IMG/VR virus record: IMGVR_UViG_3300042922_000204
Reading direction: 5' to 3' (one strand)
Length of the DNA stretch: 38,529 nucleotides
Origin: a virus
Within the stretch, counting starts at the first letter, position 1. Each line of letters starts with the position of its first letter. The notes under the pieces were generated by a model. The model was not told the DNA's origin, did not search any database, and was given only the letters and a program-made list of their open reading frames with translations. This document shows positions 5,004 to 26,476 of this stretch, piece after piece. The translations under genes were made by a program, and so were the position numbers.

Positions 5004-5006
5004 ATA

Positions 5007-5198
5007 ATGAATAAATATCTAGCAGTAATAACAACGGTTTTAGTGGCAACACAAATAATTAGGGTGATACAAAACGCGATGCAACTCAAAAAGGTTGGTA
5101 GTACTTACGAAGAACATCGAATGGTTATAAAAACATATGACAAATTAAATATAGTTTTAGATTCAAAAATAGAAGAAATGGGAGTTGATCGTTATTAA
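5007..5198 (+). CDS. Small membrane protein
   Basis: ORF track. N-terminal TM helix YLAVITTVLVATQIIRVI. ATG behind AGGGGGA. Confidence 0.6.
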   Translation: MNKYLAVITTVLVATQIIRVIQNAMQLKKVGSTYEEHRMVIKTYDKLNIVLDSKIEEMGVDRY

Positions 5199-5610
5199 TA
5201 AGGTTGTATTAGTAGGAAGATTAACTAAGGATCCTGAACTCAAATATACTGGACAAGGAACGCCAGTAGCGAGTTTCACACTAGCAGTGAACCGAAGATT
5301 CAAAAGCAAAACAGGGGACACGGATGCAGATTTCATCCCAATAGTAGCATGGGGCAATCAAGGAGAGAACACAGCTAAGTATTGTGCTAAAGGTAGTCAA
5401 ATTGCAGTATATGGAAGATTACAAGTAAGGAATTATCAGGCTAATGATGGGACAAAGAGATATGTAACAGAGGTTATCGCTGAGGAGATTACATTCTTAG
5501 GTAGTAAGAGCGATAACCGAGATATAAGTAACAATGTAAACATACAACATTCACCGCCAGTAGATGATTTTTATCCGATGGAAGAGGAAGATGACGATCT
5601 CCCATTCTGA
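5185..5610 (+). CDS. ssb: Single-stranded DNA-binding protein
   Basis: INKVVLVGRLTKDPELKYT OB-fold N-terminus and acidic tail DDDLPF. TTG5185 abuts the SD GGGAG with zero spacing. ATT5194 (9 nt spacing) gives the canonical SSB N-terminus. Confidence 0.9.
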   Translation: MIVINKVVLVGRLTKDPELKYTGQGTPVASFTLAVNRRFKSKTGDTDADFIPIVAWGNQGENTAKYCAKGSQIAVYGRLQVRNYQANDGTKRYVTEVIAEEITFLGSKSDNRDISNNVNIQHSPPVDDFYPMEEEDDDLPF

Positions 5611-5650
5611 GTTGATATGGGTTATTAATAAATTATAGAGGGGTGAGGTT

Positions 5651-5740
5651 GTGAGTAAATTTGATTATTGTGATTTCTCAGGTGGACAAGATTTTGAATT
5701 TGTAGCTCATGCAAAAAAAAGTTTACAAAACAAGAAGTAG
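5651..5740 (+). CDS. Small ORF (29 aa), possibly the 5-prime part of a frameshifted gene
   Basis: GTG behind GAGGGGTGAGG. Contains an A8 run at 5713-5720. The stop TAG overlaps the GTG of the next ORF. Confidence 0.35.
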   Translation: MSKFDYCDFSGGQDFEFVAHAKKSLQNKK

Positions 5741-5961
5741 TGGATATTTGTTTAGAACATTGGGAGTATAGGTTTAGAAAAGAATTGTACAAGAAACCTA
5801 CCGTGGATGATGTAAAAGAAGAAACAGTAAGATGGTATGTGAAAATCCCTGAATTTTGCGGATATGATGGTGAAGGCGGTTGTTATTCATACTGTGACAA
5901 AGGTGAAAGAGGTAGTTTTCCAGTATGGGTAATAATGTTTGAAAATTTAACTATACACTGA
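5740..5961 (+). CDS. Hypothetical Cys-rich protein
   Basis: ORF track (GTG start, no SD of its own). Its frame is open upstream to 5698, i.e. across the A8 run. Confidence 0.5.
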   Translation: MDICLEHWEYRFRKELYKKPTVDDVKEETVRWYVKIPEFCGYDGEGGCYSYCDKGERGSFPVWVIMFENLTIH

Positions 5962-6065
5962 TGTAAAAACCCTTTACATATAAAAAACAAGCAAAAATAT
6001 ATTGAAAAATATGTTGTTTGGCACGGCAGTTTCGGCTTGTTCTGCCCAAGAAAGGATAATGAGAA

Positions 6066-6368
6066 ATGGAGATAAAAGAAGCGATAGAAGCCTTAAATAA
6101 TACAAAGTATTTTATTAAAAATCCAAATGAATCTAAAGCTAGAAAATTAGCAATAGAATCACTTGAAAAGCAGATACCTAAGAAACCAACTATAAAATCT
6201 TTTAAAGACATAATGAGAATGATGGTGGTCCAAAAAGTTATTTGTCCCAATTGTGGCGAGTACATAACTATGATTGAATTTGAGACAGAGAAGAAAAGAA
6301 TATTTGAAAATCATAAGAGTGTTAAACATTGTGATTGTGGTCAAAAACTCAACTGGGATGTCGAATAA
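6066..6368 (+). CDS. Zinc-ribbon protein, distant third member of the 56..511 family
   Basis: Shares LEKQIPKKP ... CPNCG ... CGQKLNWD with 56..511 (LEKQMPKK ... CPNCGQKLDWE). Confidence 0.65.
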   Translation: MEIKEAIEALNNTKYFIKNPNESKARKLAIESLEKQIPKKPTIKSFKDIMRMMVVQKVICPNCGEYITMIEFETEKKRIFENHKSVKHCDCGQKLNWDVE

Positions 6369-6475
6369 TGGAAGAAGAACTTTGCCCAAGATGTAACACA
6401 AGATATAAGAGTATACACTTGCCAGTCTGCCCTAGATGTGAAAATGAGATAGCGAAGGAGAGTGAAGAAGAGTGA
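6368..6475 (+). CDS. Small zinc-ribbon protein (35 aa)
   Basis: Translated by hand: MEEELCPRCNTRYKSIHLPVCPRCENEIAKESEEE. Start overlaps the upstream stop (TAATG); its stop overlaps the next start (GTGA). Confidence 0.5.
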   Translation: MEEELCPRCNTRYKSIHLPVCPRCENEIAKESEEE

Positions 6476-6801
6476 CTGATATAGAAACGATGATAGAAGA
6501 TTTGATAATCGTAGAATTGGCGTACGCTAATGAAAAGCATGGAGAAAAATTCCACTCTCCTCATGAGTGCTATGCAGTGATAAAAGAAGAAGTTGAAGAA
6601 GTAGAAGAAGAGTTTAAACAAATTAAAATTAAACTTGAATGTATGTGGGGATTTATAAAAGAAGATGAGACCGATTCTTGTGGGATGCAGTACGAAATGG
6701 AATATATGAAAGATGCCACAATTAACCTAATCAAAGAAGCTATACAAGTTGCTGCAATGATAGAAAAGTATGAGAGAAGTTTCGGGGAGGAAGTAAAGTG
6801 A
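6472..6801 (+). CDS. Hypothetical all-alpha acidic protein (possibly MazG-like NTP pyrophosphohydrolase)
   Basis: ORF track. NEKHGEKFHSPHECYAVIKEEVEEVEEE resembles phage MazG-like proteins. This is recognition by pattern only. Confidence 0.55.
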   Translation: MTDIETMIEDLIIVELAYANEKHGEKFHSPHECYAVIKEEVEEVEEEFKQIKIKLECMWGFIKEDETDSCGMQYEMEYMKDATINLIKEAIQVAAMIEKYERSFGEEVK

Positions 6802-7016
6802 AAATAATCACGGATATTGTAGAAATGTTTTTCATGCAACTTATCATAAGTCAAAGAATGAAACTTATAAAAAAGAGTGAAAAAAGAATTAATAAGCTAA
6901 GGTGTAAATTTAATGCCGAAGTATCATATAGGGAATGGCTTTTAAAAGATGCAAGGGCAATGATGGAAAAGATTAAGAAGTTTGAATTGAAATCTGGGAG
7001 GAAGGATGATGAATAA
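6798..7016 (+). CDS. Hypothetical protein
   Basis: ORF track. GTG behind GGGGAGGAAG. Confidence 0.5.
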   Translation: MKIITDIVEMFFMQLIISQRMKLIKKSEKRINKLRCKFNAEVSYREWLLKDARAMMEKIKKFELKSGRKDDE

Positions 7017-7161
7017 ACGTCAAGCCAAGAAGAGTAGGAATAAGATTCCTTACATAGTGGCGGATTATTCAAACAATGGCGGATATACAGTAATAACTCA
7101 GTATAAAAGAATAAACGGTGAAGTTAAAGTGGTTAAGTGTGAAGTAACTAAAAATCAATAA
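7006..7161 (+). CDS. Small hypothetical protein (51 aa)
   Basis: Translated by hand: MMNKRQAKKSRNKIPYIVADYSNNGGYTVITQYKRINGEVKVVKCEVTKNQ. ATG behind GGGAGGAAGG. Fills a gap in the track. Confidence 0.5.
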   Translation: MMNKRQAKKSRNKIPYIVADYSNNGGYTVITQYKRINGEVKVVKCEVTKNQ

Positions 7162-7174
7162 GGGGGATAACTCA

Positions 7175-7390
7175 TTGATAGAGTGTTATTTGATAAATGA
7201 TGGAAAATTTAAAAGTGTTGGTATGTCTGAAGAACATCTAATCCAATTATCCAACAATCTTAGAACTTACGGTATAGAAATGGTTCATTTCGAAAAAGAA
7301 AGTATTTTGGTTGAAGGTATATATATTCCTGCAAAAGGAACAAATAATTCATTAATGATAATACCAAGCATTGAAGATGAAAAGGAGTGA
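7175..7390 (+). CDS. Hypothetical protein
   Basis: ORF track. TTG start in the cassette GGGGGATAACTCATTG. Confidence 0.55.
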   Translation: MIECYLINDGKFKSVGMSEEHLIQLSNNLRTYGIEMVHFEKESILVEGIYIPAKGTNNSLMIIPSIEDEKE

Positions 7391-7397
7391 TAACTCA

Positions 7398-7799
7398 TTG
7401 AGCATATATAACCTATCAAGAGAATTAGAAATTGAAACTAGGACATTACATAGCTTAGAGAGACAGTATAAGAAGTTAGAAATTAACTTAAGCCCCAAAG
7501 GGTTAAATAAGGGGCGAAGCTATGAAGTGCATGATAATATACATGGTAGTGGTTCAATGACGTTCGCTGATGCTTTGAGGGTAATGGAGAGTTTGAGGAT
7601 AGACATAGTAGAGCAGATAAATAAGATTAAGGTTATAGAGTTAGACATTAAGAAGATAGATGAGACAATAAAGAGTTTCAAGGGATTAAAGCAAAAGGTG
7701 AAGTATATGCAGTTAGTGGAGGGCAAGAGTTTAAGGGAGATAGCAAGGGAGTTAGATTATAACTATGGGCATATAAGAAAGGTGGCTATGAATAAGTGA
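7398..7799 (+). CDS. Late-gene transcriptional activator (RinA/ArpU-like, sigma-70 region-4-like HTH)
   Basis: C-terminal EGKSLREIARELDYNYGHIRKVA is a region-4-type HTH. Size and position just upstream of the packaging genes fit. TTG7398 in the cassette AGGAGTGATAACTCATTG lies after the upstream stop at 7390. Confidence 0.6.
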   Translation: MSIYNLSRELEIETRTLHSLERQYKKLEINLSPKGLNKGRSYEVHDNIHGSGSMTFADALRVMESLRIDIVEQINKIKVIELDIKKIDETIKSFKGLKQKVKYMQLVEGKSLREIARELDYNYGHIRKVAMNK

Positions 7800-7804
7800 A
7801 TAAC

Positions 7805-7954
7805 ATGAGAAAAGAGATACTAAGCAAGTTTGGAATTACAAGATGCCAACTTTGCAATAAACTCACTAGAGTAAAAAGTACCGTAGGGATTAAAAATCGG
7901 TTCAATGGTAAAAAACTAAGACTGTGTAAGTCATGTGGTAAAAGCTTTAATTAA
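7805..7954 (+). CDS. Small zinc-ribbon protein (49 aa)
   Basis: Translated by hand: MRKEILSKFGITRCQLCNKL...LRLCKSCGKSFN. Weak SD. Confidence 0.4.
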   Translation: MRKEILSKFGITRCQLCNKLTRVKSTVGIKNRFNGKKLRLCKSCGKSFN

Positions 7955-8081
7955 AATGTGCAACAATCATGCAACAGTTTAGATAGACAAAATGTGATAT
8001 GCTACTACTGTAGAAGTATATCGGTAAGTAGTAAAACGAAACAAGAAGTATAATAAATATGTTGTTGGCAAAGAAACTAAT

Positions 8082-8116
8082 AAGATTACCTTGTGGCGAG
8101 GTAGTCTTATTTTTAT
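8082..8116 (+). terminator. Rho-independent terminator at the early/late boundary
   Basis: AAGATTACC-ttgtggcga-GGTAGTCTT forms a 9-bp stem with one G-U pair, followed by ATTTTTAT. Confidence 0.6.
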
Positions 8117-8137
8117 GTCACAAACTAAGGTGATGAT

Positions 8138-8422
8138 ATGTACCAAGAGGGAATATACAAAGTAATCCGAGATAGTAAAGGTTATGTACTTATTAACACG
8201 ATAGGAGAGTACAAATCGCATGGGCATCTCAAGTCTTTACATATAGCCAAGAAGGTAATTAAGATGATGAAGAAAGGTACTGTGCCTGACTCTGATTACC
8301 TGAGAGGGACAGTGTTGAGGGTATCGACTGACAAGGCGTATATAGATAAGGTTAACCAGAAGATAATCAAAGACCGTAACAAGCTAGGGTTTATTAATAT
8401 AAACAAAGGGTTAGTACGATGA
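8138..8422 (+). CDS. Hypothetical protein
   Basis: ORF track. ATG behind AAGGTGA. First gene after the terminator. Confidence 0.6.
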   Translation: MYQEGIYKVIRDSKGYVLINTIGEYKSHGHLKSLHIAKKVIKMMKKGTVPDSDYLRGTVLRVSTDKAYIDKVNQKIIKDRNKLGFININKGLVR

Positions 8423-8493
8423 ACAAGTGTAAGGGTTGCGTATGGGTAGTAAAGGTTAATGATAAGGTGTGGTACTGTATGTGGAGTAGATAG
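8419..8493 (+). CDS. Possible micro-ORF (24 aa, Cys-rich)
   Basis: ATGA overlap with the upstream stop. Sequence is MNKCKGCVWVVKVNDKVWYCMWSR. It ends 1 nt before the HNH ATG. Confidence 0.25.
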   Translation: MNKCKGCVWVVKVNDKVWYCMWSR

Positions 8494-8494
8494 T

Positions 8495-8809
8495 ATGGCT
8501 AAACCATTCGCCATTAAGTTCTACAATAGTAAGGCTTGGAGGGTATGCAGAAAGTCTTACTATCAATCAGTAGATGGACTATGCGAGAAGTGTATAGAAG
8601 AAGGCAAGGTCAAGTTAGGCGACGAGGTACATCATAAGATAGAACTCACACCTGACAACATAGATGATCCGAACATTACATTAGCATGGAGCAACCTACA
8701 ACTACTATGCTTCACTTGCCATCAAGATATAACTCATGAGAGAAAGAAACCTATGAGAAAAGGATTATGTTTTAATGAATATGGGGAACTAGTACAGGAA
8801 AAAGAGTAG
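8495..8809 (+). CDS. Terminase-associated HNH endonuclease
   Basis: MAKPFAIKFYNSKAWRVCRKSY...CEKC...EVHHKIEL...LCFTCHQDITH is the HNH family found next to terminases of cos phages. ATG8495 is in frame with track ORF 8459..8809. Confidence 0.85.
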   Translation: MAKPFAIKFYNSKAWRVCRKSYYQSVDGLCEKCIEEGKVKLGDEVHHKIELTPDNIDDPNITLAWSNLQLLCFTCHQDITHERKKPMRKGLCFNEYGELVQEKE

Positions 8810-8810
8810 G

Positions 8811-8914
8811 AAAGTGGGAGAGAAACCCTAATCCCCCCCTAAAAAGTACACAAAAGTGGGAGACAAAAAACCGAGGGCTAAGGTCAGCTCGACACACAAG
8901 AAAAAGTGGGTGAC
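8811..8914 (+). repeat. Three direct AAAGTGGG(A/T)GA repeats in a C-tract-rich intergenic region (candidate cos / TerS-binding region)
   Basis: Copies at 8811-8822, 8853-8864 and 8903-8914, interspersed with CCCCCCC (8833-8839) and CCCCCTACCCC (8914-8924). Lies between HNH and terS. Confidence 0.6.
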
Positions 8915-8943
8915 CCCCTACCCCGAGAAAAGAAGGTGAATTT

Positions 8944-9315
8944 ATGACGAAGAAGAAAGAGTTACCCAAAGCTGAAAGAATCAACAAAGAAGAAGCCAGA
9001 CTTAGAAGGACTTACAAAAGTTTACCGAAAGATGTAATTAGTATAATGGATGGACTCTTTCGGAGAGCGGCATATATGAGAGCAACCTTAGAAGATTATG
9101 AGAAAGACTTAGATGAAAATGGTTATGTTGAGAAATTCACCCAATCGGAGAAAACGGAACCCTATGAAAGGGAAAGACCTGCAGCAAGACTCTATAATAC
9201 AATGACCAAGAATTATCAGAGCGCAATCAAACAACTGGATGACAAACTCCCAAAGGAAGAAGTTAAAGAGGTTGATGATGGTTTTAACAGCTTCGTAAAC
9301 GCAAGAGATGATTAA
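8944..9315 (+). CDS. terS: Terminase small subunit (P27-like)
   Basis: 123 aa. Positioned directly upstream of and overlapping terL. Sequence pattern LFRRAAYMRATLEDYEKDLDENG...ERPAARLYN is typical of the P27-family small subunit. Confidence 0.75.
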   Translation: MTKKKELPKAERINKEEARLRRTYKSLPKDVISIMDGLFRRAAYMRATLEDYEKDLDENGYVEKFTQSEKTEPYERERPAARLYNTMTKNYQSAIKQLDDKLPKEEVKEVDDGFNSFVNARDD

Positions 9316-10993: not shown

Positions 10994-10998
10994 GGGAG

Positions 10999-12234
10999 GT
11001 GAGAAAAATAGGCATACTAGATAGGTTTAAAAATAAAAGCACCTCTGTGACTAGATTTGAAATGATTAGCGATAATGGTAACGGATATTACGCCTGGAAT
11101 GGCAAGTTATATAAAAGTGACATTGTAAGAGCATGTATAAGACCTAAATCAAAGGCGGTAGGCAAATTAGTAGCTAAGCACATCAGAGAAACCCTTAAAC
11201 CCGATGGATCAACAGATTTAAAGGTAAATCCTGACGTGTATATGAGATTTCTACTAGAAGAACCCAACCCATACATGACAGGACAGATGATGCAAGAGAA
11301 AATCACTACTCAGTTACAGTTAAACAACAACGCTTTTATATACATCAACAGGGATGACAATGGCTATCCTAATGAGTTATATCCTGTGCCTTGTTTGGGT
11401 GCAGAAGCTAAGTATAATAGCCAAGGCGAGTTGTTTTTGAAGTGTACTATGAGAAATGGGAAGATGGTTACTTATCCATATACAGATATTATCCATTTGC
11501 GCCAAGATTACAATGAAAATGATATATTCGGAGAAAGTCCCAGAGATGCTTTGCTTCCACTCATGGAAATAGTTAATACAACAGATCAAGGAATAGTTAA
11601 AGCAATCAGAAACTCTAATATCATAAAATGGTTACTTAAATTTAATCAAACACTAAGGCCTGAGGATCTGAAAAAGCAAACAGAAGATTTCGTCACTAAC
11701 TATTTAAATATAGATAGTACGTCGGTAGGCGCTGCTGCGGTTGATGCTAAAGTAGATGCACAACAAGTTAGTCCCAATGACTATGTTCCCAATGCCCCGC
11801 AGATGGACAGAACTACTGTAAGGATATATTCGTTCTTTGGCACTAATGAGAAGATAGTTCAATCTAAATACTCAGAAGATGAATGGAACTCTTACTATGA
11901 GTCAGAAATTGAACCTTTGGCAATGCAATTAAGTGGTGAATTTACTAGAAAACTATTCACCAGGAGAGAAAGAGGTTTTGGAAACTCAATTATATTTGAA
12001 GCATCAAACCTTCAATATGCTTCAATGTCTACTAAGTTAAATTTATTACAAATGGTAGATAGGGGCGCATTGACTCCGAACGAGTGGAGGAAGATACTTG
12101 GAGGATTGGCACCAGTGCAAGGTGGAGATGTCCCAGTTAGACGTTTAGATACTGCGGTAGTAACTGAGGTTAATAATAAGTTAAATGAGATTAAAAAGGC
12201 ATTAAAGGGGGTGATAAATATTGAAGAAAGTTAA
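10999..12234 (+). CDS. Portal protein (HK97 family)
   Basis: 411 aa between terL and the prohead protease. The track GTG10999 lies inside the SD GGAGGTGA. ATA11008 (5 nt after the SD) is the likelier start, giving (M)GILDRFKNK. Confidence 0.85.
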   Translation: MRKIGILDRFKNKSTSVTRFEMISDNGNGYYAWNGKLYKSDIVRACIRPKSKAVGKLVAKHIRETLKPDGSTDLKVNPDVYMRFLLEEPNPYMTGQMMQEKITTQLQLNNNAFIYINRDDNGYPNELYPVPCLGAEAKYNSQGELFLKCTMRNGKMVTYPYTDIIHLRQDYNENDIFGESPRDALLPLMEIVNTTDQGIVKAIRNSNIIKWLLKFNQTLRPEDLKKQTEDFVTNYLNIDSTSVGAAAVDAKVDAQQVSPNDYVPNAPQMDRTTVRIYSFFGTNEKIVQSKYSEDEWNSYYESEIEPLAMQLSGEFTRKLFTRRERGFGNSIIFEASNLQYASMSTKLNLLQMVDRGALTPNEWRKILGGLAPVQGGDVPVRRLDTAVVTEVNNKLNEIKKALKGVINIEES

Positions 12235-12913
12235 TATTAAAGGTGCCATAGTCTCAAATGATGATCAATGGATATATGAATGGTGTGATATTGAGTCCAC
12301 AAGTCCAAAATCAGTCATGAAAGAAATTAATGATGCCAATGGCGATGAATTGGAGGTTGAGATTAACTCGGGTGGTGGTGATATATTTGCCGGATCTGAA
12401 ATCTACACAGCTTTGAAATCTTATCAAGGCAATGTAGTAGTCAAAGTGGTCGGTTTGGCTGCAAGTGCTGCAAGTGTAATAGCTATGGCAGGTAAAAAGG
12501 TATTGATGTCACCCACTGCACAACTTATGATACATAACGTGTCAACTAGGGCCAGTGGAGATCACAGAGATATGGAACATACTGCTGAAGTCCTTAAAAA
12601 CGCAAATGAAACAATAGCTAACTCATATACGATAAAAAGTGGTATGGGTAAAGATGAATTATTAGCTATGATGGACCATGAAACGTGGCTCACCCCACAA
12701 CAAGCACTAGACCATAAATTTATTGATGAAATAATGTTTAGTAATCAATTAGATTTAGTTGCTAGTTATGGAAATTCAATTCTTCCAAAAGAATTAATAA
12801 ACAAAATAAGAAATACAATCAATCCGATAAGAAATGAGTCGGATATTTTTATGCAACAAAAAGCAGAAGCACAATTAAAACTACTTAAATTAAAAGGAGG
12901 GTCACATAGATGA
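12221..12913 (+). CDS. Prohead maturation protease (ClpP-like serine protease)
   Basis: EINSGGGDIFAGSEIYTAL...GLAASAASVIAMAG...LMIHN is the ClpP-family pattern. TTG behind AAGGGGGTGA. Confidence 0.85.
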   Translation: MKKVNIKGAIVSNDDQWIYEWCDIESTSPKSVMKEINDANGDELEVEINSGGGDIFAGSEIYTALKSYQGNVVVKVVGLAASAASVIAMAGKKVLMSPTAQLMIHNVSTRASGDHRDMEHTAEVLKNANETIANSYTIKSGMGKDELLAMMDHETWLTPQQALDHKFIDEIMFSNQLDLVASYGNSILPKELINKIRNTINPIRNESDIFMQQKAEAQLKLLKLKGGSHR

Positions 12914-14121: not shown

Positions 14122-14126
14122 TATTT

Positions 14127-14149
14127 AGGGACTTTTGTCCCTTTTTCTT
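14127..14149 (+). terminator. Rho-independent terminator after the capsid gene
   Basis: AGGGAC-tttt-GTCCCT followed by TTTTCTT. Confidence 0.7.
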
Positions 14150-14168
14150 AATAAAAGAGGTGATCTAA

Positions 14169-14459
14169 ATTATCTTAGATGATGTTAAAAAATCATTACG
14201 AATATCAACAACTTATTTCAATGATGATGTTCAAGATATAATCGATTCTGCAAAAGCCGACCTAATTTTAAGTGGCGTACTAGAAGCCAAGGTTGTGGAT
14301 AGTGACCCGCTTATAAAGAGGGCAGTAATCCTGTATAGCAAGGCTAATTTTGGTTCAGGCAATGCAGATAGTGAAAAATATATAGCATCTTATACAAGCC
14401 TTAAAACCCATCTGACGCTATCTCAAGAATATACGGTTGCACCAGTTGAGGTGATCTAA
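14169..14459 (+). CDS. Head-tail connector protein (gp6-like), ATT start
   Basis: Absent from the ORF track. Hand translation (I)ILDDVKKSLRISTTYFNDDVQDIIDSAKADLILSGV...LTLSQEYTVAPVEVI is typical of gp6-like connectors. The frame is closed by TAA at 14166-14168. ATT14169 occupies the same position after GAGGTGATCTAA as the ATG of the next gene. Confidence 0.75.
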   Translation: MILDDVKKSLRISTTYFNDDVQDIIDSAKADLILSGVLEAKVVDSDPLIKRAVILYSKANFGSGNADSEKYIASYTSLKTHLTLSQEYTVAPVEVI

Positions 14460-14777
14460 ATGTGGAAAGATATTGCTAAATTAATCTATACAACAATAAC
14501 ACAAGATGCTGATGGGTTCGATATTGAAACCAAAACCGAAACAGAAGTATGTGTGAATGTGAAATCAGTTGCAAGAACAGAGTTTTATTCAGCTTTGCAA
14601 TCTGGGTACAAGCCAACAATCGGATTTGAGGTGCATTCGTTTGACTTTGACTTAACTAAACACATGGTTGGAAATAAAGCTTTGTATGCAGATAAAGTTG
14701 AGTACGAAGGTGCAATATATGAAATTATTAGAACCTATGTAAAACAAAACGAAATAATGGAGTTAACATGTAGTTAG
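14460..14777 (+). CDS. Head closure / head-tail adaptor protein
   Basis: 105 aa. Position and pattern (KTETEVCVNVKSVARTEFYSALQSGYKP) fit SPP1 gp16-like head-closure proteins. Confidence 0.7.
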   Translation: MWKDIAKLIYTTITQDADGFDIETKTETEVCVNVKSVARTEFYSALQSGYKPTIGFEVHSFDFDLTKHMVGNKALYADKVEYEGAIYEIIRTYVKQNEIMELTCS

Positions 14778-14787
14778 GTGGTGAGGT

Positions 14788-15527: not shown

Positions 15528-15530
15528 AAA

Positions 15531-16124: not shown

Positions 16125-16129
16125 TAACT

Positions 16130-16156: not shown

Positions 16157-16167
16157 AGGAGGCAACA

Positions 16168-16575: not shown

Positions 16576-16586
16576 ATGTTGCTCGC

Positions 16587-16781
16587 TTGATTTATGTAGG
16601 CAAAATGTTATTAGGATATAAAGAAGAAGAAGTTTGGGAAATGACAATAGGTAAAATAATTACATTATTTAGACAATACAAAGATAATTTCGACTTAGAA
16701 GAAAGTTTAAAAAGAAATAAGCTAGGTTATTCGGATTTAATAATCGAAGGAAAACCAAGAGAAAATATTGTCTCTTTCTAG
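16587..16781 (+). CDS. Tail assembly chaperone extension (gpT-like), expressed as a G-T fusion by -1 frameshift
   Basis: Its frame is -1 relative to 16168..16575 and open from 16533. There is no SD before the track TTG. This is the canonical G/T arrangement. Confidence 0.65.
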   Translation: MIYVGKMLLGYKEEEVWEMTIGKIITLFRQYKDNFDLEESLKRNKLGYSDLIIEGKPRENIVSF

Positions 16782-16784
16782 GAG

Positions 16785-19700
16785 GTGAGAACAATAACTA
16801 AAAAAGGAACGATAGGCGCAGGAATAGCATTAGATGGAGAAAAAGAATTTAGACAAAGCATAACGAATATAAACAAAGATCTAAAAGTACTAAAAAGTGA
16901 AGTGGGTCTAGTGTCAGCTGAATTTGGTGATAACGCAAACTCCATGCAAGCGTTAACTAAAAGAAGTGATGTATTAAGCAAAGAATTTGACACACAAAAA
17001 GATAAAGTTGAAGCACTTAGAAAAGCGTTGGCTAACTCAGAACAACAATACGGAGAGAACGACAACAAGACTAAAGAGTGGCAAGCGTCTTTAAATAAAG
17101 CGGAAACCGAACTTGTAAAACTCGATAGAGAACTCCAAACGAATGACAAATATTTAGAAGAAGCTAAGCAATCTACAGATGGAGTCGCAACATCAATTGA
17201 CCAATATGGTAGACAAGTCAAGCAAAGTACGGTTGAAACAAAATCTTTTAGTGATGAGTTAGACGATGCCAAAAAGGAAACGAAAGACCTTAGCAAAGAG
17301 TTGGATACTGTAAAGGGTGGACTATCTAGCTTTGGCAAAGTAGCGGTGGGTGCGGTTGTTGGCTTGGGTGCTGCACTATATGGAGTCACAGAAAGTACCA
17401 AAGAATTTAGGCAAGATTTCTCTAAACTCGAACAGAATGCTAGAGATGTTGGAACTGGAATCGATGGAGTATCAGGAGAACTCAAAAAACTTGATGCAAT
17501 AACAGGCGAGACAGATGCAAATATAGAAGGTTTATCAAACTTAATGGCTGCCGGATTTAAAGGTGAAGGGCTTACAAAAGCAGTAGAAGCCTTATCTGGT
17601 GCAGTAATAAAATTTCCCGACACGATGAAGATAGAAGGTTTATCCGACGGACTACAAGAAACACTTGCCACAGGGAAAGCAGTTGGAACATTTGGAGAAA
17701 TGCTTGAGAGGTTAGGATATAACTTAGCTGACTTTGACAAAGGGTTAGCAGCTTGTAATGGCGAAGCAGAAAAGCAAGCATATATTTTAGATGTACTTGC
17801 ATCTACTGGACTTGCTGATGTTAATAAGCAATATAGAGAAAATAATAAAGAATTAATTGCTAATGCTGATGCCCAATATGATATGCGTGAAGCAATGTCT
17901 GATATTGCGACTGCGGTTGCACCATCTTTAAATAGAGCCATGCAGAAAGTATCGGATGGAGTTAAAGATTTTAGTGAAGGAACGTTGCCGGTTTTGGTTG
18001 ATGGTCTTGAGTGGGTTATTGATAACTCTGATTTAGTAATAGGTGGTATTGTTGGCATAGCTACTGGACTTGCGGTGTTTAAAGCAGGGGGTGTAATAGT
18101 TGCCGGCATTGAATTAACCCAAGCAGCAATGGCAGCTTATGCAGCAGAAACAACAATAGCGGCCGGAGCAACCGCAGCATTAAATGTTGTACAGTTAGCT
18201 AGTCCTATGGGGTTAGTGGCGGCAGCGGTTGGACTCGCAGTCGGAGGATTGGCAATATATGCACTTAATGCAGATAAATCATCAAGTGCAACTGATGCGT
18301 TAAATGAAAAATCTAAAGCATTGACCGGAACAATTAAAGATAATGTTCAAGCTAGAAAAGACTCTACAAAAGCGGTTGAATCAGAGTACGGTTCCATATC
18401 TATTCTTACTGATGAATTATACAAGTTGGCAGACAAGACCAATAAATCTAACTCTGAAAAGGCTCAGATGGTGTCTATCGTAGGGCAATTAAACGAATTA
18501 ATGCCTGAGTTAAATCTACAAATAGACAAGGAAACTGGACACTTAAATAAAAATCATGGTGAAATTGAAAAAGTAACGAGAGCCAATTTAGAATATTACA
18601 AAGTTAAAGTATCTCAAGAAAAGCTTATTGGTATAACTGAGGATATGGCAAAAGCAGAAATAAATCTAAGCGAGCAAATGGAACGGAAAGGAGAAATCCA
18701 AGATAAACTAAACGCATTAAGCGAGAAGAATTTCCATTTAAGTTCTAGTCAGCGAAAAGATTATAACGATCAGATGGAATCGCTAGACGAACAGATAGCG
18801 AAAACCAAAGGCACAATGAAAGGTCTAGGCGCTGAATTTGACTCAACCTCAAAATATGTAGGCGATAACACAGATAAATTAAATGCCAATGGTGCACAAT
18901 ATGGCGAATTAGGAAGTTCGGCTGAGAGTGCATCCGGTCAAGTAACTGAGTCAGTGAACACAATGTCAGCTGAAACCGCCGAAGCAGTACAATCAATGAG
19001 TGATAGTATATATAACTCAACAGGATTATTTGACGAGTTTTCGAAAAGCACCGATGTATCAAGTGAAACATTAATGGAGAATCTTAGATCTCAAGTAACT
19101 GGGGTTGCAGAGTGGGCTACTAATATTACCGAATTAGCGAAAAAAGGCATAGACGAAGGACTATTGCAAGAGTTAAGAGACATGGGACCCGAAGCATATA
19201 CCGAAATCGCAGCCTTAAATGGAATGACTGGCGAACAACTTACAGAGTATAACCGACTATGGCTAGAGAAAACCGCACAAGCCACAGCTGTAGCAATAGA
19301 GCAAGCTGGATTAACTAAAGATGGGGTAACGACCGAAACTGGACAAATGAGCGAAAATGGCATAGCAGCAGCCGGTGGCATGGCTTTTGGAATGTTGGAA
19401 AAATTACAACAAGGTACTCCGGGAGTTACAGGAGCAGCCGATAATATGAAGATTGGTGTAGATGGCAAGCTTCAACCTTTAGCAGGGATAGGACTAAAAA
19501 CCGGTATGGCAACAGCTACTAATTTAGGTAGTGGAATATCAGTGAATGGTTATCAAGCATCAAACGCAATGGGTACAGTAGTTGGTGATGCAAAAACTGC
19601 TGGTGAAAAGAAATCCACAGGGACTACCTCAATAGGCAAGGCTTTAGTAGATGGAATTTCACTCGGAATAGCGAACAATGGTTTCAATGTGTCGGGTGCA

Positions 19701-20108
19701 TTAGGCGGAATTGTTAGTGGTGCGATGAAGTGGGTTAAAGATAAGTATGGCATTAAATCTCCATCTAGAGTTTTTAGGGATGAAGTTGGAATGATGTTAG
19801 GTGCTGGACTTGCAATAGGGATCGAGAATAGTGCAGCCGATGTTAATAGAGCAATGGGAGTACTTAATAAAGAAATAAGCCTAGACCCTATAAATGCAAG
19901 TGTAAATACATCAATAAATGGATCTTCTAGCACTGGTGGACTTGATCTAGGCAGTTTAGTAAGTGCAATAACTTCGCTAGCCAATAGACCTATTACATTA
20001 AGTATAAATGGTAGAGAATTTGCAACTGCCACATCAGGAGATATGAGTATAGCGTTAAATTCATTAAATAAATCAGGAGCAAGGCAGATGGGGGTGGTAG
20101 TACGATAA
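16785..20108 (+). CDS. Tape measure protein
   Basis: 1107 aa, coiled-coil plus Gly/Ala-rich TM-like segments, after the G/T pair. GTG16785 lies inside the SD GGAGGTGA. ATA16794 (5 nt after the SD) is the likelier start. Confidence 0.9.
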   Translation: MRTITKKGTIGAGIALDGEKEFRQSITNINKDLKVLKSEVGLVSAEFGDNANSMQALTKRSDVLSKEFDTQKDKVEALRKALANSEQQYGENDNKTKEWQASLNKAETELVKLDRELQTNDKYLEEAKQSTDGVATSIDQYGRQVKQSTVETKSFSDELDDAKKETKDLSKELDTVKGGLSSFGKVAVGAVVGLGAALYGVTESTKEFRQDFSKLEQNARDVGTGIDGVSGELKKLDAITGETDANIEGLSNLMAAGFKGEGLTKAVEALSGAVIKFPDTMKIEGLSDGLQETLATGKAVGTFGEMLERLGYNLADFDKGLAACNGEAEKQAYILDVLASTGLADVNKQYRENNKELIANADAQYDMREAMSDIATAVAPSLNRAMQKVSDGVKDFSEGTLPVLVDGLEWVIDNSDLVIGGIVGIATGLAVFKAGGVIVAGIELTQAAMAAYAAETTIAAGATAALNVVQLASPMGLVAAAVGLAVGGLAIYALNADKSSSATDALNEKSKALTGTIKDNVQARKDSTKAVESEYGSISILTDELYKLADKTNKSNSEKAQMVSIVGQLNELMPELNLQIDKETGHLNKNHGEIEKVTRANLEYYKVKVSQEKLIGITEDMAKAEINLSEQMERKGEIQDKLNALSEKNFHLSSSQRKDYNDQMESLDEQIAKTKGTMKGLGAEFDSTSKYVGDNTDKLNANGAQYGELGSSAESASGQVTESVNTMSAETAEAVQSMSDSIYNSTGLFDEFSKSTDVSSETLMENLRSQVTGVAEWATNITELAKKGIDEGLLQELRDMGPEAYTEIAALNGMTGEQLTEYNRLWLEKTAQATAVAIEQAGLTKDGVTTETGQMSENGIAAAGGMAFGMLEKLQQGTPGVTGAADNMKIGVDGKLQPLAGIGLKTGMATATNLGSGISVNGYQASNAMGTVVGDAKTAGEKKSTGTTSIGKALVDGISLGIANNGFNVSGALGGIVSGAMKWVKDKYGIKSPSRVFRDEVGMMLGAGLAIGIENSAADVNRAMGVLNKEISLDPINASVNTSINGSSSTGGLDLGSLVSAITSLANRPITLSINGREFATATSGDMSIALNSLNKSGARQMGVVVR

Positions 20109-20965
20109 CGCTAGATGGATATACATTAAAATACTTTGGACTACATTGTGAAAAGCAAAAAAACCCATTGACTCCTGAATACACTCACAAAACACAAGAT
20201 ATTCCCGGAGTTGGAGTTGTAAATTTTGGGGCAGAAATTAAAGAGAAACCTTTTGAATTTGAAATAAGCACAAAAGGAATAGACAAAATTGATCTTCAGC
20301 ATAAACTAAGAACTTTCATTTCGTTTTTATTTGATGATTTTGGAAAACCAAGAGACATTAAATTGATCTATAATTATGAATCAGACAAGTTTTATACAGT
20401 TAAAGTTATATCTCAGATAGACCCTGATAGGGTACTCCGAACTGGAAAATTTGATTTAAGGTTTGTGGGTTACGATCCTTATGCTCAATCTAATATATTT
20501 GCGGATGAAGTTATGTGGGGCAGTGAGGTTTTAACTTTTCGATCATATTACCTTTTAGGACATTCGATGTCAAGAAATGTTGTGTTGTGGGGTAGTGATG
20601 AATTAACATTCGATGGTGATTATGAAATGGGATATACCGATGCTGTAGGAGCAATAAATGTTACAGGCCAGACCGAACTAGATGTATATGTAGATGGGTT
20701 AGTAGTTAAACCAATTATTGAAATAAGCGGAAGTGCAACAAATTTAGTGATATCAGCAAATGGAAAAACGCTTAACTTCCCTACTTTCAGTAATTCTATT
20801 TGGGATATAGATTGTGAAAATTACACAGTGTTGAAAAACGGAGTCAACACTTTTGAAATAGGTTTGAGAGAATTTATGTTGTTAAAAGGTGCTGGGAAAG
20901 TTGGAATATCAGGAAGTGGTATTGATATTGATATACGAATTAAATACAGAGACAAATACCTATAG
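20105..20965 (+). CDS. Distal tail protein (Dit), probable ATA start
   Basis: The track starts at TTG20168, but the frame is open from 20072. Residues ITLDGYTLKYFGLHCEKQKNPLTPEYTHKTQDIPGVGV form the conserved Dit N-terminus. ATA20105 lies 7 nt after GGGGGTGG and overlaps the TMP stop (ATAA). Confidence 0.7.
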   Translation: MTLDGYTLKYFGLHCEKQKNPLTPEYTHKTQDIPGVGVVNFGAEIKEKPFEFEISTKGIDKIDLQHKLRTFISFLFDDFGKPRDIKLIYNYESDKFYTVKVISQIDPDRVLRTGKFDLRFVGYDPYAQSNIFADEVMWGSEVLTFRSYYLLGHSMSRNVVLWGSDELTFDGDYEMGYTDAVGAINVTGQTELDVYVDGLVVKPIIEISGSATNLVISANGKTLNFPTFSNSIWDIDCENYTVLKNGVNTFEIGLREFMLLKGAGKVGISGSGIDIDIRIKYRDKYL

Positions 20966-20976
20966 GAGGTGGTGAT

Positions 20977-22449: not shown

Positions 22450-22461
22450 GGAGGCGATGAA

Positions 22462-24567
22462 ATGGCAGAACTAATAGAGGTAGGCGACAGTCTTAATGAT
22501 GGCAGAGAAAAACTAAACGTCGCAATTTTACAATCAGAAGAAGCATTAACTAAATCTACTATTGCAAGTGATACGGTTGAAGATATAGCAGGCACGGTAC
22601 TTGCATCTGTAGATGAAGCGGTTGCCGAAGCAGTAAGAGTAACCAATGAAGTAATAGTAATATCTAGCGAAGCGCTAGAACAATCAGAAAATACTCAAAC
22701 TCAGTTAAATACAATTGTTATAAATGGTGACTCCTCCGTTGAAGCCGCTCAAGCTAGAGTTGAACAAGACGGTACTGTAAATACTACATTAAAAGCTAGA
22801 TTAGATAAAAAAGAAACTGAGACTGCTGCGCAATTGGCAGAAACTACGCTACAACTTGAAGTAAATTCTAATGCGATTGCAATTAACTCTAATTTAATAC
22901 AAACATCTTTGAGTGGACGTCCAAATGGTGCTTATACCACTTTGGCTTTATTGCAAGCTGCTCATCCTACAGACGATGGAAATATATATGTAGTCGGAAC
23001 AACGACGGGGTATATATATGATTGGATTGATGGTGCTTGGACTAACACGAATGTACAATACGGAGGGACAGTACTTCCTGATAGTGCAGTATCATCTTTT
23101 AATGTAGATAGCTATAATTCCAAAAGTGAGGCGTTTTTAAACAAGTGTGAAGGTAATTTGCATTTAAACTCGTTAACATGGTGGGCAGCATTAAATGGAA
23201 CAAGGGTATTAGATGCACTAGGTATTAAGATTACAACAGATGCTAACGGTATTGGTTATGTATACAATAGTGTCAAAGGAAGTGTTTTTAATTGTGCTGT
23301 TGGAGATAAAATAGTATACATAACTAAGTTTAAAACAGGAGATTACACTGGAAATTTAAAAATAACGAATGCGTTGTATACTACAAGTGTTACCCAGGTA
23401 GTTGATTGTAATATAAATGTTCAACCTAATACTGAGTATTATGCAATTTCAGAATATATATCAAACTTAGCATTTAATGATATCGCAGGTGGTGCAGCGG
23501 TTAAATTTACGAGTGATGGAACAATTGTTGATGTAATTCTTGAGCAACAATTCATTTCGTTTATTGCAAAATCTTCTTACTTTTTTAATTTTAAGTTTGA
23601 TGATGTAAATAATCAAGCACATATTATTAGTTGCAGGGATAAAGCACTATTAAAAACTTTAAATTCATATGATAGTAAAAAATTAGGTGGTAGCACAAAA
23701 GAAGATATAATTGCTGAAGCGGTTGCTGAAGCTACAGGTATGACAACTAAAGATGTGTCTTGTAATGGTGACAGTTTAACCCAAGGAACAGGAAGTCCCT
23801 ACCCATATCCATATGTGTTGGGAACGCTACTTGTTGATAGAATAGTAAATCGTTTTGGAGTAGGTGGTGACGGAAGTTTAAGTGTGGCTTATAGACAAGG
23901 TGGTATGCCTTTATATGTTCAACCATGCACAATTCCTGCTGATACATCGGTAGTGTCTATAGTATTAAAAAACGCTAATGGTGATACCGTCAATTTAAGT
24001 GCTTTGAACGGCTTAATGTTTGGTGTTAATCCTTGTTTTGTTAATGGTATTGAAGGAACATTATCTTATAGTAGCGGAGTGAAATTTACTAGAACAGTGG
24101 CAGGAAGTGCGGTAACAAATACTAGACCAACATTATTTATCACAGAAACAATGAAAAATCATAAAGATGATATTCATGTTATTTGGGCAGGCACGAACGA
24201 TGGAATCACTGTAAATGGAGTAACCGATACATTTAATAACATTGATGCAATGATTGAATCCATTAATCATAGACAATACATTGTGATTGGAATGACAGCT
24301 AAAACCTATATGTCAAACGTGGCAGATATCAACGTATTATTTCGTAAAAAGTACGGTAATCGTTTCTTGGATATAAGACAATATTTACTTAATTATGGAC
24401 TTGCTGATGCAGGGATTACTCCAACTACACAAGATACAACAGACATAGCTAATGGTGAAATCCCTATAAGCTTGAGAAGTGACGCAGTACATCTTAATAC
24501 TGCTGGATATGATATTGTAGCTAAACAAGTTTATGAGTTTGGCAAAGATTTAGGATATTGGAGTTAA
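22462..24567 (+). CDS. Tail fibre with C-terminal SGNH/GDSL esterase domain
   Basis: Has the same N-terminal anchor motif. C-terminal SGNH blocks: CNGDSLTQGTG, IWAGTNDG, DAVHLNTAGYD. Confidence 0.75.
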   Translation: MAELIEVGDSLNDGREKLNVAILQSEEALTKSTIASDTVEDIAGTVLASVDEAVAEAVRVTNEVIVISSEALEQSENTQTQLNTIVINGDSSVEAAQARVEQDGTVNTTLKARLDKKETETAAQLAETTLQLEVNSNAIAINSNLIQTSLSGRPNGAYTTLALLQAAHPTDDGNIYVVGTTTGYIYDWIDGAWTNTNVQYGGTVLPDSAVSSFNVDSYNSKSEAFLNKCEGNLHLNSLTWWAALNGTRVLDALGIKITTDANGIGYVYNSVKGSVFNCAVGDKIVYITKFKTGDYTGNLKITNALYTTSVTQVVDCNINVQPNTEYYAISEYISNLAFNDIAGGAAVKFTSDGTIVDVILEQQFISFIAKSSYFFNFKFDDVNNQAHIISCRDKALLKTLNSYDSKKLGGSTKEDIIAEAVAEATGMTTKDVSCNGDSLTQGTGSPYPYPYVLGTLLVDRIVNRFGVGGDGSLSVAYRQGGMPLYVQPCTIPADTSVVSIVLKNANGDTVNLSALNGLMFGVNPCFVNGIEGTLSYSSGVKFTRTVAGSAVTNTRPTLFITETMKNHKDDIHVIWAGTNDGITVNGVTDTFNNIDAMIESINHRQYIVIGMTAKTYMSNVADINVLFRKKYGNRFLDIRQYLLNYGLADAGITPTTQDTTDIANGEIPISLRSDAVHLNTAGYDIVAKQVYEFGKDLGYWS

Positions 24568-24597
24568 GACATATTAGGAATAAAGTGTGCGGTACTT

Positions 24598-24623
24598 GAG
24601 ATCTCAAAAGAGGTCTCTTTTTA
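24598..24623 (+). terminator. Rho-independent terminator after the fibre genes
   Basis: GAGATCTC-aaaa-GAGGTCTC forms an 8-bp stem with one G-U pair, followed by TTTTTAA. Confidence 0.7.
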
Positions 24624-24646
24624 ATGCAGAAAGGAGGTCTTGACTT

Positions 24647-26476
24647 ATACTAATCGTAAAAGATAAAAATCAAAAAGAACTAGGTATCCTAGAAAGTGCA
24701 TACAACATATCAATAAAGAGGACAGTCAATTCAATCTGGCAATCCTCTTTTTCTTTACTCAAAAAAGACCCAAAGAACGAACTTTGCTCACACATGAATT
24801 ATGTAGCTATATACGGAGAGAGTGAGCGATATTACGGACTGTATAGGATAATGCCTACGGAAACTCGAATAAACGATACAAATGAAAGTATCACATATAC
24901 TTGCGAACACGTATTAGCAACATTGCTCGATGATGTAATGAATGGCTACCACCAATACACAAACTATACTACAAGACAAGCCTTAGAATACATTTTAAGC
25001 CTACAAGAAACTGAGAGGTGGGTATTAGGTCAAATAGATTTTACAAGGTACTTTAGTTACTCTTTCGAGAATGAGAATGGACTCTTAGCACCTATCCTAT
25101 CAATCCCTAAGCCTTTTAGCGAGCCATACGAGTTTACATTCGATACAGAAAATTATCCTTGGACATTAAATCTAATCCAAGCTAGTGACGTTGTAAAGGC
25201 TGAAATTAGATGGGGAAAGGATATGATAGATTTTAGCGAAGTATCAGACCCTACCGACATAGTTAATTATCTAATTCCAAAAGGTTCAGGCGAGGGAGTT
25301 AATCAAGTAACAATTGAAAGTGTAAATGGTGGACTTAATTATCTTAAGGATGATGCGTCAATTGTAAAGTGGGGTAAACGGTCTTATATATGGATTGACT
25401 CACGTTTTGAGGATGCACAAACTTTAAAGGATAATGCGCAAGCTTTGCTTGAACAATGGAAAGAACCTAAAGTAAGTTTTCCTTTGGACTCCACAGACCT
25501 TTCAATATTGCCTGAATTTGCTCAGGAAAGAAAAATTTTGAATGGTGTAACTAGAATTATAGTTGATGATGAAAATTATTATGGGAGAATTATTGGCGAG
25601 AACATTACAGATTTGTCGAAAGAATACGATGTAAGTTATGACATAAATAATAAACTTAACGACATGGCCACTACACAGACTGATATCGAGAGAAAGCAAC
25701 AAGTTAATGACGCCTATTCCCAAGGGGCAACTAATATAATCAACTTCACCTACCAAGATAATTGTGATAGTGTGATTCCAGCGATTGTCCCATTTTATAT
25801 TGATGATGATGTAGTTAACGTAAACACTTGCGAATTGACTTTTAGGACGAAGGCTTTTAGGGCATACAGTCAAGCTACTGATGGTGGAGGGGCAACTGTG
25901 AGTTCTACCAGTAGTGGTGGAGGTACAAGTAAGTCAACAGATAGTGGTGGTGGCAGTGCTCAAACATCAAGTTCTGGTGGGAATAGTACCGTTATAGCAC
26001 CAACCGGTTTCATAGATTCTGTGTCCGGTGGGACAAGTGGCGCAGTTGAATACACTGGTGGTGGACACTTTCATACTTTTTCTATCTCAGGGGCTTCATA
26101 TGAACATACTCACACCATTGATATACCGGCTCATACACATAGTGTAAACATTCCAGCGCATAGTCATTCATTTAATACACCTGATCATAGTCACGAAGTA
26201 ACGTTGCCAAATCATGAACATGGGATTAAACATGGTATTTATGAACTTGAAACAACGCCATCTAGCGTAGCGATTAAAGTGGATGGAAATTTAATATCAC
26301 ACGACTCCACAACAGGTGACAGAATAAATCTAGTCAACTATATGAATAAAGAGAGCAGCGGAAAGATTACAAGAGGTAGACATGAGGTTGAAATATTACC
26401 TAATGGATTGGCTAGGATAGAGGCTGATTTAATACTACGCGTATTTATTCAATCGCGTCTTGGAGGAAATTACTAA
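24647..26476 (+). CDS. Tail-associated protein Tal (phage minor structural protein / prophage tail endopeptidase family), probable ATA start
   Basis: The track starts at ATG24794, but the frame is open from 24644. Residues ILIVKDKNQKELGILESAYNISIKRTVNSIWQSSFSL form the conserved Tal N-terminus. ATA24647 lies 9 nt after AGGAGG. The C-terminus has a Gly/Ser tract and HxH repeats. Confidence 0.75.
   Translation: MLIVKDKNQKELGILESAYNISIKRTVNSIWQSSFSLLKKDPKNELCSHMNYVAIYGESERYYGLYRIMPTETRINDTNESITYTCEHVLATLLDDVMNGYHQYTNYTTRQALEYILSLQETERWVLGQIDFTRYFSYSFENENGLLAPILSIPKPFSEPYEFTFDTENYPWTLNLIQASDVVKAEIRWGKDMIDFSEVSDPTDIVNYLIPKGSGEGVNQVTIESVNGGLNYLKDDASIVKWGKRSYIWIDSRFEDAQTLKDNAQALLEQWKEPKVSFPLDSTDLSILPEFAQERKILNGVTRIIVDDENYYGRIIGENITDLSKEYDVSYDINNKLNDMATTQTDIERKQQVNDAYSQGATNIINFTYQDNCDSVIPAIVPFYIDDDVVNVNTCELTFRTKAFRAYSQATDGGGATVSSTSSGGGTSKSTDSGGGSAQTSSSGGNSTVIAPTGFIDSVSGGTSGAVEYTGGGHFHTFSISGASYEHTHTIDIPAHTHSVNIPAHSHSFNTPDHSHEVTLPNHEHGIKHGIYELETTPSSVAIKVDGNLISHDSTTGDRINLVNYMNKESSGKITRGRHEVEILPNGLARIEADLILRVFIQSRLGGNY

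Follow-up and report, generated by a model that had tools for sequence, protein, structure and literature searches.

Do six core genes of a single phage genome start at AUA or AUU, or have their true start codons been overlooked? The question is raised by IMG/VR virus record IMGVR_UViG_3300042922_000204, a JGI metagenome contig of 38,529 bp (clusters P0042 and P0241-P0249; G+C content 35.5%), which was analyzed at its full length and is referred to as the window. Since an exact direct repeat of 125 nt is found at both termini (1-125 = 38405-38529), the contig is a circular assembly and represents a phage genome that is complete at about 38.4 kb. The encoded phage is a temperate siphovirus. An earlier note on this DNA had proposed that the genes of SSB, the portal protein, a head-tail connector, the tape measure protein, Dit and Tal begin at ATA or ATT behind strong Shine-Dalgarno (SD) sequences. 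Our analysis predicts the same start positions, and we consider it likely that they reflect genuine near-cognate initiation at AUA and AUU which probably throttles low-copy virion proteins.

Inspection of the sequence placed all six codons and their SDs where the earlier note had located them (Table 1). The codon is AUA in the genes of portal, tape measure, Dit and Tal and AUU in those of SSB and the head-tail connector. The spacing was counted from the base to which the final G of GGAGG is aligned; it amounts to 10 nt in Dit, 9 nt in Tal and 8 nt in the four other genes. The remaining strong-SD genes of this genome, which carry canonical start codons, show the same range of 8-10 nt. In the connector gene 9 nt of the SD are complementary to the 3' end of the 16S rRNA, and ATC 14172 represents a second start option. 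The frame check also agreed with the proposal that connector, Dit and Tal lack a canonical start in front of the conserved N-terminus. Right after a TAA stop, the frame of the connector opens at 14169 and does not meet a canonical codon until GTG 14295. That of Tal is open from 24644, a single codon ahead of the ATA; ATG 24794, 49 codons into the gene, is its earliest canonical codon. In Dit, the earliest ATG, GTG or TTG is TTG 20168, at a distance of 21 codons from the start. The sole canonical codon of the other three genes (TTG 5185 in ssb, GTG 10999 in portal and GTG 16785 in tape measure) abuts the SD or sits inside it. That no usable canonical start exists is therefore strict for connector, Dit and Tal and follows from the spacing argument alone for ssb, portal and tape measure.

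Table 1. Coordinates of the predicted initiation sites, their genes and the surrounding features of the window
Feature	Position	Strand	Remarks
ssb initiation region	5180..5196	+	SD GGGAG 5180-5184, 9-nt spacer, ATT 5194-5196
Portal initiation region	10994..11010	+	SD GGGAGGTGA 10994-11002, ATA 11008
Connector initiation region	14157..14171	+	extended SD GAGGTGATC 14157-14165, TAA, ATT 14169
Tape measure initiation region	16780..16796	+	SD AGGAGGTGA 16780-16788, ATA 16794
Dit initiation region	20090..20107	+	SD GGGGGTGG 20090-20097, ATA 20105
Tal initiation region	24628..24649	+	11-nt SD AGAAAGGAGGT 24628-24638, ATA 24647; in-frame TGA 24641-24643
SSB coding sequence (CDS), 138 aa from ATT	5194..5610	+	Pfam SSB profile 1-104 = residues 1-102
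Portal CDS, 408 aa from ATA	11008..12234	+	Pfam Phage_portal; identity to homologues reaching 85%
Head-tail connector CDS, 96 aa from ATT	14169..14459	+	Pfam Phage_connect_2 profile 1-105 = residues 2-89
Tape measure CDS, 1104 aa from ATA	16794..20108	+	frame and homologue alignment
Dit CDS, 286 aa from ATA	20105..20965	+	Pfam Sipho_tail profile 6-117 = residues 11-121
Tal (tail-associated lysin/prophage-tail) CDS, 609 aa from ATA	24647..26476	+	Pfam Prophage_tailD1 profile 1-84 = residues 2-88
Terminator-like hairpin and T-run	14127..14142	+	between capsid and connector genes
Terminator-like hairpin and T-run	16130-16146		after tail-tube gene
Terminator-like hairpin and T-run	24598..24617	+	5' of Tal initiation region
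Replication and recombination genes			SSB gene within, at 5194
Virion module	~8944 to 26476	+	structural genes grouped on one strand
Holin and amidase genes			
Integrase and repressor		-	

The N-termini predicted from these codons agree with those of homologous proteins. In alignments an ATG or TTG of the homologues maps to each of the six codons, as would be expected from the earlier note, which had suggested such a comparison. In the case of SSB, the ATG of three homologues beginning MNKVV (L125, L007 and L042) aligns exactly with ATT 5194; the earlier note needs a correction for Caldibacillus phage CBP1, the methionine of whose protein aligns one codon 5' of this ATT. About 50 portal homologues beginning (M/L)GILxKFxNK are in register with ATA 11008, and the methionine of 16 connector homologues, M(I)L(D/E)D..., is in register with the ATT/ATC. 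Two relatives of the tape measure gene (L094 and L174) have GGAGGTGAGAAAA(A)-ATG, with SD and spacer equal to GGAGGTGAGAACA-ATA of the window, and the Dit homologue of CBP1 has an ATG at the corresponding place. Conversely, the nearest canonical codons would remove 21-49 conserved residues according to the Pfam boundaries. Both lines of evidence agree with the claim that the automatic list of open reading frames (ORFs) misses the connector and truncates Dit and Tal. In the JGI annotation (P0042) the connector is a protein of 54 aa from GTG 14295, and the Logan caller skips the gene. The gene calls of Dit start at TTG 20168 (residue 22) and yield 265 aa, 21 residues short, and those of Tal start at ATG 24794 (residue 50) and yield 560 aa, 49 residues short. 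Taken together, the alignments confirmed that an AUA, AUU or AUC (AUH) codon occupies the predicted position of the orthologues' initiator methionine at all six sites.

The closest deposited phage is Caldibacillus phage CBP1 (MF595878), which shares the gene order of the window and is 60-65% identical in Tal, 61% in the portal protein and 58% in SSB. Unlike the window, it carries ATG (ssb, connector, tape measure and Dit) or TTG (portal and Tal) at the six homologous positions. As a side observation, about 3.8 kb of its record (L001, 26925-30710) are unannotated though they encode the Tal homologue (TTG 28809) and its neighbours, and its tape measure gene is split into three CDS.

Such a number of AUH starts is not expected by chance. 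We screened for SD duplexes of at most -12 kcal/mol followed at a spacing of 6-11 nt by an ATA, ATT or ATC that opens a reading frame of 80 codons or more and has no canonical alternative. In the window, the six sites and no others came out of this unbiased screen; they make up 6 of its 24 strong-SD starts. In 200 related loci (2.63 Mb), 35 non-canonical strong-SD starts were found next to 1251 canonical ones (~2-3%), the 35 being an upper bound as false matches include ATA-then-ATG arrangements in L122, L148 and L152 and minus-strand matches; 168 loci had none. The difference between window and relatives is significant (Fisher p = 6e-5), which upholds the earlier statement that six such starts in one genome are no coincidence. 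Hence, the window is an outlier in the density of AUH starts even among its relatives. The description of AUU and AUA starts as very rare is appropriate for E. coli and does not hold for Bacillota, given the share that they have among the strong-SD starts of related loci. Moreover, strong SDs without a canonical start nearby were followed by an ATH codon at a spacing of 6-11 nt in 11 of 22 cases, whereas codon usage would predict 14% (p = 7e-5).

The SDs of the six genes are among the strongest of the genome. Their mean energy is -16.0 kcal/mol compared with -10.7 kcal/mol at 54 genes with canonical starts (Mann-Whitney p = 4e-4), and at four of the six sites unbroken complementarity to the 16S 3' end extends over 8-11 nt. 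Stronger SDs are to be expected at AUH starts if these codons are weak and need compensation.

Similar start sites were found in related phages. In the portal family, an ATA without any canonical alternative is present in one phage represented by three independent datasets, namely its NCBI, JGI and Logan assemblies (L009, L010 and L011). The arrangement of the window recurs with ATA in a myovirus (L012) and in L014, and ATT is used in L018, L014 and L018 being prophages in metagenome-assembled genomes (MAGs) of 'uncultured Clostridium sp.'. Altogether, the portal start is ATA in the window and in 4 further distinct contexts and ATT in 1. In a neighbour-joining tree of the portal proteins, the ATA lineages of the window, L011 and L012 are interspersed with TTG lineages within one clade, and L014 and L018 represent separate origins. 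A further portal gene, that of a Clostridium sp. MAG prophage (L013, ~3735-3750), has an ACG aligned with the methionine of the homologues, and its sole canonical codon is a GTG inside the SD-like sequence GTAGGTGGT; judged by this alignment, the ACG may be another near-cognate start.

For Tal, the aligned codon of 19 family members is ATG in 5, TTG in 8, ATA in 5 and ATT in 1, the last being ambiguous. ATA is found in the window, L233, L238, L239 and phage YPHTV-1, and TTG alternates with it at the same position of (M)IIRTLNLNRQTTAILENAY. In Halomonas phage YPHTV-1 (L225, ON854455) the annotated GTG start of Tal lies inside the SD GAAGGTGATC (11998-12009), and an ATA follows 8 nt past GAAGG, the core aligned with GGAGG, and is aligned with the start of the relatives. 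The stated Halomonas host of this phage is questionable, as its structural genes resemble those of Bacillota phages. Besides, L238 and L239, two isolate-genome prophages whose Tal starts at ATA, contain 3' of Tal a gene of 71 codons (at 8878 and 9073, respectively) whose product begins with (M)IENILQYFLTQGPFA and which likewise starts at an ATT, 8 nt past GGAGG.

In the tape measure family, the products of L137 and L193 (ATC) and of L145 (ATA) begin with (I)E(L/I)FKLFGS, and L004 has an ATG (MELFRLFG). A similar case was identified in a cultured phage of C. difficile, Clostridium phage phiMMP04 (L226, NC_019422), in the baseplate XkdQ/YQBQ-like gene gp16 (10866-11383). RefSeq gives gp16 as a protein of 92 aa from ATG 11105, which matches positions 47-134 of the YQBQ profile and leaves a gap without annotation at 10866-11104. 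Its frame opens at 10877 behind GGAGGTGA and contains ATA 10880 and ATT 10883, with no canonical codon 5' of the first YQBQ-aligned residue. The extended protein of 167 aa matches profile positions 1-134, with the domain starting at residue 26. Thus, the RefSeq entry of gp16 appears to be truncated, with a loss of 46 profile positions. Among the examined relatives of connector, Dit and SSB no AUH start was found, and more distant loci with portal proteins of 33-36% identity (Bacilli and rumen MAGs) gave no match in the strong-SD screen.

How could these codons be used? Near-cognate codons are paired at their first two bases by the CAU anticodon of the initiator fMet-tRNA. We propose that the SD, being unusually long and strong and complementary over up to 11 nt to the 3' end of the Bacillota 16S rRNA, fixes the 30S subunit and thereby would place the weak codon in the P site. 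The host is presumably an uncultured Clostridia-type member of the Bacillota which, by analogy to published reporter data, would discriminate weakly against AUH codons. In C. sporogenes and C. butyricum reporters, AUU, AUA, AUC and CUG gave 40-100% of the AUG output with the 5' untranslated region (UTR) of fdx and 5-20% with that of thl, compared with 0.04-3% for the same near-cognate codons in E. coli, and the authors urged a re-examination of Clostridium gene annotations (PMC9680021). In S. aureus all AUA and AUU starts mapped by Ribo-RET stand behind extended SDs and reach 10-30% of the AUG output, and the AUA of ccpN is common to S. aureus and B. subtilis (PMC13009471). The relatives of the window, both phages and prophages, come from Clostridia and other Bacillota, the named ones belonging to Clostridium, Clostridioides, Romboutsia, Terrisporobacter, Tissierella and some Bacilli. 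Together with the clostridial values of 5-100% of AUG for AUA and AUU, this favours the host with relaxed start selection that had been offered as one explanation, as far as the analogy carries.

The portal, connector, tape measure, Dit and Tal proteins are present in 3-12 copies per virion. The genes of the capsid, the tail tube and three other head-tail proteins of the window start at ATG, and that of the protease at TTG. Consequently, AUH starts would be predicted to yield less portal, connector, tape measure, Dit and Tal than ATG-started capsid and tail-tube protein. Start codons across families were tallied by an open-frame and SD rule, as tblastn extrapolation to 'residue 1' is unreliable where N-termini vary. 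By this rule portal genes start at ATG in 33 of 76 distinct contexts and capsid genes in 55 of 58 (~95%; Fisher p = 8e-11). In addition, the late operon contains three terminator-like hairpins with T-runs (Table 1), and those just upstream of connector and Tal probably add attenuation. A comparable T-rich tract lies 5' of the Tal SD in most relatives; the hairpin scan covered the tract of the window only. These alignments and tallies suggest that start-codon strength acts as a conserved stoichiometry dial for the virion, although the fit is imperfect.

Several observations weigh against genuine AUH initiation with a dosage role. Initiation at the six sites was read from the sequence alone, and relaxed start selection in the host of this phage is extrapolated from two Clostridium species, in which one of the two 5' UTRs allowed AUH codons 40-100% of the AUG output, i.e. 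little throttling. Initiation of ssb, portal and tape measure at their in-frame TTG or GTG is possible. The weak-start trend among relatives was seen for portal and Tal and is absent for the other four families; connector relatives start at ATG in 30 of 37 cases and tape measure relatives in 13 of 15. Moreover, SSB is not a low-copy protein. The idea of translational throttling from the earlier note is therefore borne out in part, namely by portal and Tal families with weak starts next to capsid genes with ATG, and not by SSB and the mostly ATG-started relatives of connector and tape measure.

The same observations leave room for neutral drift, according to which the AUA and AUU starts are real, AUH codons work about as well as AUG in this host and no dosage or regulatory role exists. 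For the set as a whole we regard drift as possible but rather unlikely; for some sites it is a serious alternative. The fdx reporters described above are in line with it (PMC9680021), as are the connector, tape measure, Dit and SSB relatives, which mostly have ATG, so that most AUH starts of the window are lineage-specific. However, drift does not account for the link between AUH starts and stronger SDs (p = 4e-4). In the window and the loci examined, AUH starts were limited to low-copy or accessory genes, with none in capsid or tail-tube genes. Furthermore, portal and Tal retain weak TTG, GTG or ATA starts over deep divergence and the capsid retains ATG.

A second alternative is termination-reinitiation, in which ribosomes restart without full proofreading by initiation factor 3 (IF3) and codon identity is of minor importance. 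The ssb ATT shares a base with the TAA (5196-5198) that ends the preceding ORF, giving ATTAA, and the Dit ATA overlaps the tape measure stop as ATAA. The portal ATA lies 14 nt past the TerL stop (TAA 10991-10993), with the SD directly 3' of it, and the tape measure ATA 12 nt past a TAG stop (16779-16781) that overlaps the SD. Reinitiation may thus contribute at ssb, Dit, portal and tape measure. Connector and Tal start 47 and 79 nt past the previous stop, behind terminator-like hairpins, and therefore coupling cannot explain these two sites. Many canonical-start genes of the window are coupled as tightly. For these reasons, we consider reinitiation an unlikely explanation of the pattern.

It is less probable still that only connector, Dit and Tal use AUH starts and that SSB, portal and tape measure begin at TTG 5185, GTG 10999 and GTG 16785. 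These codons are in frame and are chosen by Prodigal-type gene callers. Nevertheless, each of them lies inside or against the sole SD of its gene, at a spacing of zero or below. As GTG belongs to the SD consensus GGAGGTGA, an in-frame GTG is expected there by chance 1 time in 3. In addition, the homologue N-termini fit the ATA or ATT in register and length, and the portal relatives L009-L011 have the ATA without any canonical codon.

We also considered that the AUA and AUU starts, together with the UUG and GUG starts of portal and Tal, sense the initiation fidelity of the host. Late genes would then be translated efficiently once IF3 proofreading becomes limiting, either through an imbalance of ribosomes and IF3 or through a phage factor, and the start codon would give timing as well as stoichiometry to virion assembly. 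Five of the six sites belong to late genes and each SD is strong enough to hold a waiting 30S subunit, but we regard this idea as speculative and its truth as very doubtful.

Highly improbable is a decaying prophage whose start codons were mutated away and whose genes are silent. A change from ATG to ATA or ATT needs one substitution only. However, all six ORFs are intact, including the tape measure gene of 1104 codons, their SDs are strong as described above and the genome is circular and complete. Moreover, infectious cultured phiMMP04 has a like feature, which is repeated in the portal and Tal families.

The systematic sequence error mentioned in the earlier note, or a base modification read as A or T at start codons, can practically be dismissed: a Logan assembly of SRR35179801 is 100% identical over 8882-36476 of the window, i.e. 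at five of the six sites (its reads and the JGI contig possibly come from the same sample, the assembly is separate), an error would need to hit the third base of start codons exclusively, and in another phage the ATA of the portal start is the same in the assemblies of NCBI, JGI and Logan. As the same habit recurs in related phages, in unrelated datasets and cultured phages alike, it reflects biology and not error.

Three further candidates were rejected. Fusion with the upstream gene by frameshift or readthrough was excluded since the frames differ and the products would be capsid-connector or tape measure-Dit fusions. An alternative genetic code (e.g. table 4) does not apply: TGA is the stop of ~20 of 60 plus-strand genes and therefore the standard code is used, and the conserved structural ORFs are uninterrupted under table 11. 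ARAGORN found no tRNA gene in the phage genome and Rfam gave no match, which argues against a phage-encoded suppressor or initiator tRNA or a known RNA element.

Genuine AUH initiation in this phage has precedents in cellular genes. In E. coli, infC and pcnB start at AUU and are IF3-sensitive; AUU gives ~1% or less of the AUG output, and infC is autoregulated by IF3. As in these genes, a weak AUU start would hold the output low in the window. Unlike there, AUA is the commoner codon, and the link to IF3 belongs to the E. coli genes; according to Pfam none of the six genes encodes IF3. A similar architecture is found in infC, cvfC1, ccpN and citZ of S. aureus and B. subtilis, in which a near-cognate AUH codon is paired, at a fixed distance, with an SD of unusual length (PMC13009471). 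In these genes, too, the weak codon is conserved in orthologues and is missed by gene callers. Their starts were mapped experimentally, with an output of 10-30% of AUG, whereas those of the window are known from sequence (PMC13009471). They are also four isolated regulatory genes of the cell in ~2.8 Mb, whereas the window holds 6 AUH starts among ~60 plus-strand genes in 38 kb, five of them in the 16 genes of the virion module, and the feature recurs in portal, Tal, tape measure and baseplate genes of phages. The GusA reporters of C. sporogenes and C. butyricum provide a physiological basis for AUH starts (PMC9680021). The constructs of that study were synthetic and carried two 5' UTRs, and no natural gene was described; natural cases are offered by the window, with an extrapolated host.

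The mechanism of AUH initiation is thus already known from infC, pcnB, ccpN and cvfC1. In the literature on ATA and ATT starts in phages we found no description of such a pattern. What is new is the density, i.e. 10% of the genes and almost a third (5/16) of the virion module, and the setting, namely structural genes of phages. Also new are the recurrence in the portal, Tal, tape measure and baseplate families, including cultured phages, and the systematic mis-annotation. Because Prodigal-type callers and RefSeq disallow ATA and ATT, genes in phages of Clostridia and other Bacillota are silently truncated, shifted or dropped. This affects the annotation of portal, connector, Dit, Tal, tape measure and baseplate genes, and the errors pass on to structure prediction, receptor-binding studies and phage engineering. 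Our results suggest that AUA is part of the working start-codon repertoire in AT-rich Bacillota hosts. A phage with six AUH starts represents a natural test bed for the rescue of near-cognate initiation by extended SDs, and the exchange of ATA and ATG is a simple handle to tune phage protein ratios in clostridial hosts.

Concerning the position of the phage among known genomes, a Megablast search of window positions 5000-25000 against deposited phages gave no match, and thus no near-identical reference exists among them. Scans of IMG/VR with the tail-tube protein, the replisome organiser and Dit yielded no close relative. The nearest relative is probably a JGI contig of 38,394 bp, the replisome organiser of which shares the 90%-identity cluster P0248. 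The integrase, whose best match is 61% identical, assigned no host.

Further features of the window were observed in the vicinity of the six genes. Upstream of the tape measure gene lies a tail-assembly chaperone pair, consisting of an ORF at 16168-16575 and a -1 frame open at 16533-16781. In the overlap, C CCA AAC at 16542 is correctly phased for a slippery heptamer and a candidate for this role, so that the pair is predicted to represent the usual G/GT programmed frameshift. Two large genes are located between Dit and Tal (20977-24567) and encode proteins of 490 aa, without a Pfam match, and 701 aa. The latter has a GDSL esterase domain at its C-terminus and is named 'lysophospholipase L1-like esterase' by JGI. 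This region may encode a receptor-modifying or depolymerase-type tail accessory.

Finally, the 210-nt gap 5' of the lysis cassette contains an element at 27154-27251 that looks like a leader peptide or attenuator. Behind its extended SD, AAGAAGGTGAT (-16 kcal/mol), ATG 27169 begins an ORF of 11 codons, MTLFFWWWLFI*, with three tryptophan codons in a row. The region as a whole folds no better than shuffled sequences (z = -0.8), and 3' of the ORF a 10-bp inverted repeat is present (ACCCTCAAAG ... CTTTGAGGGT).

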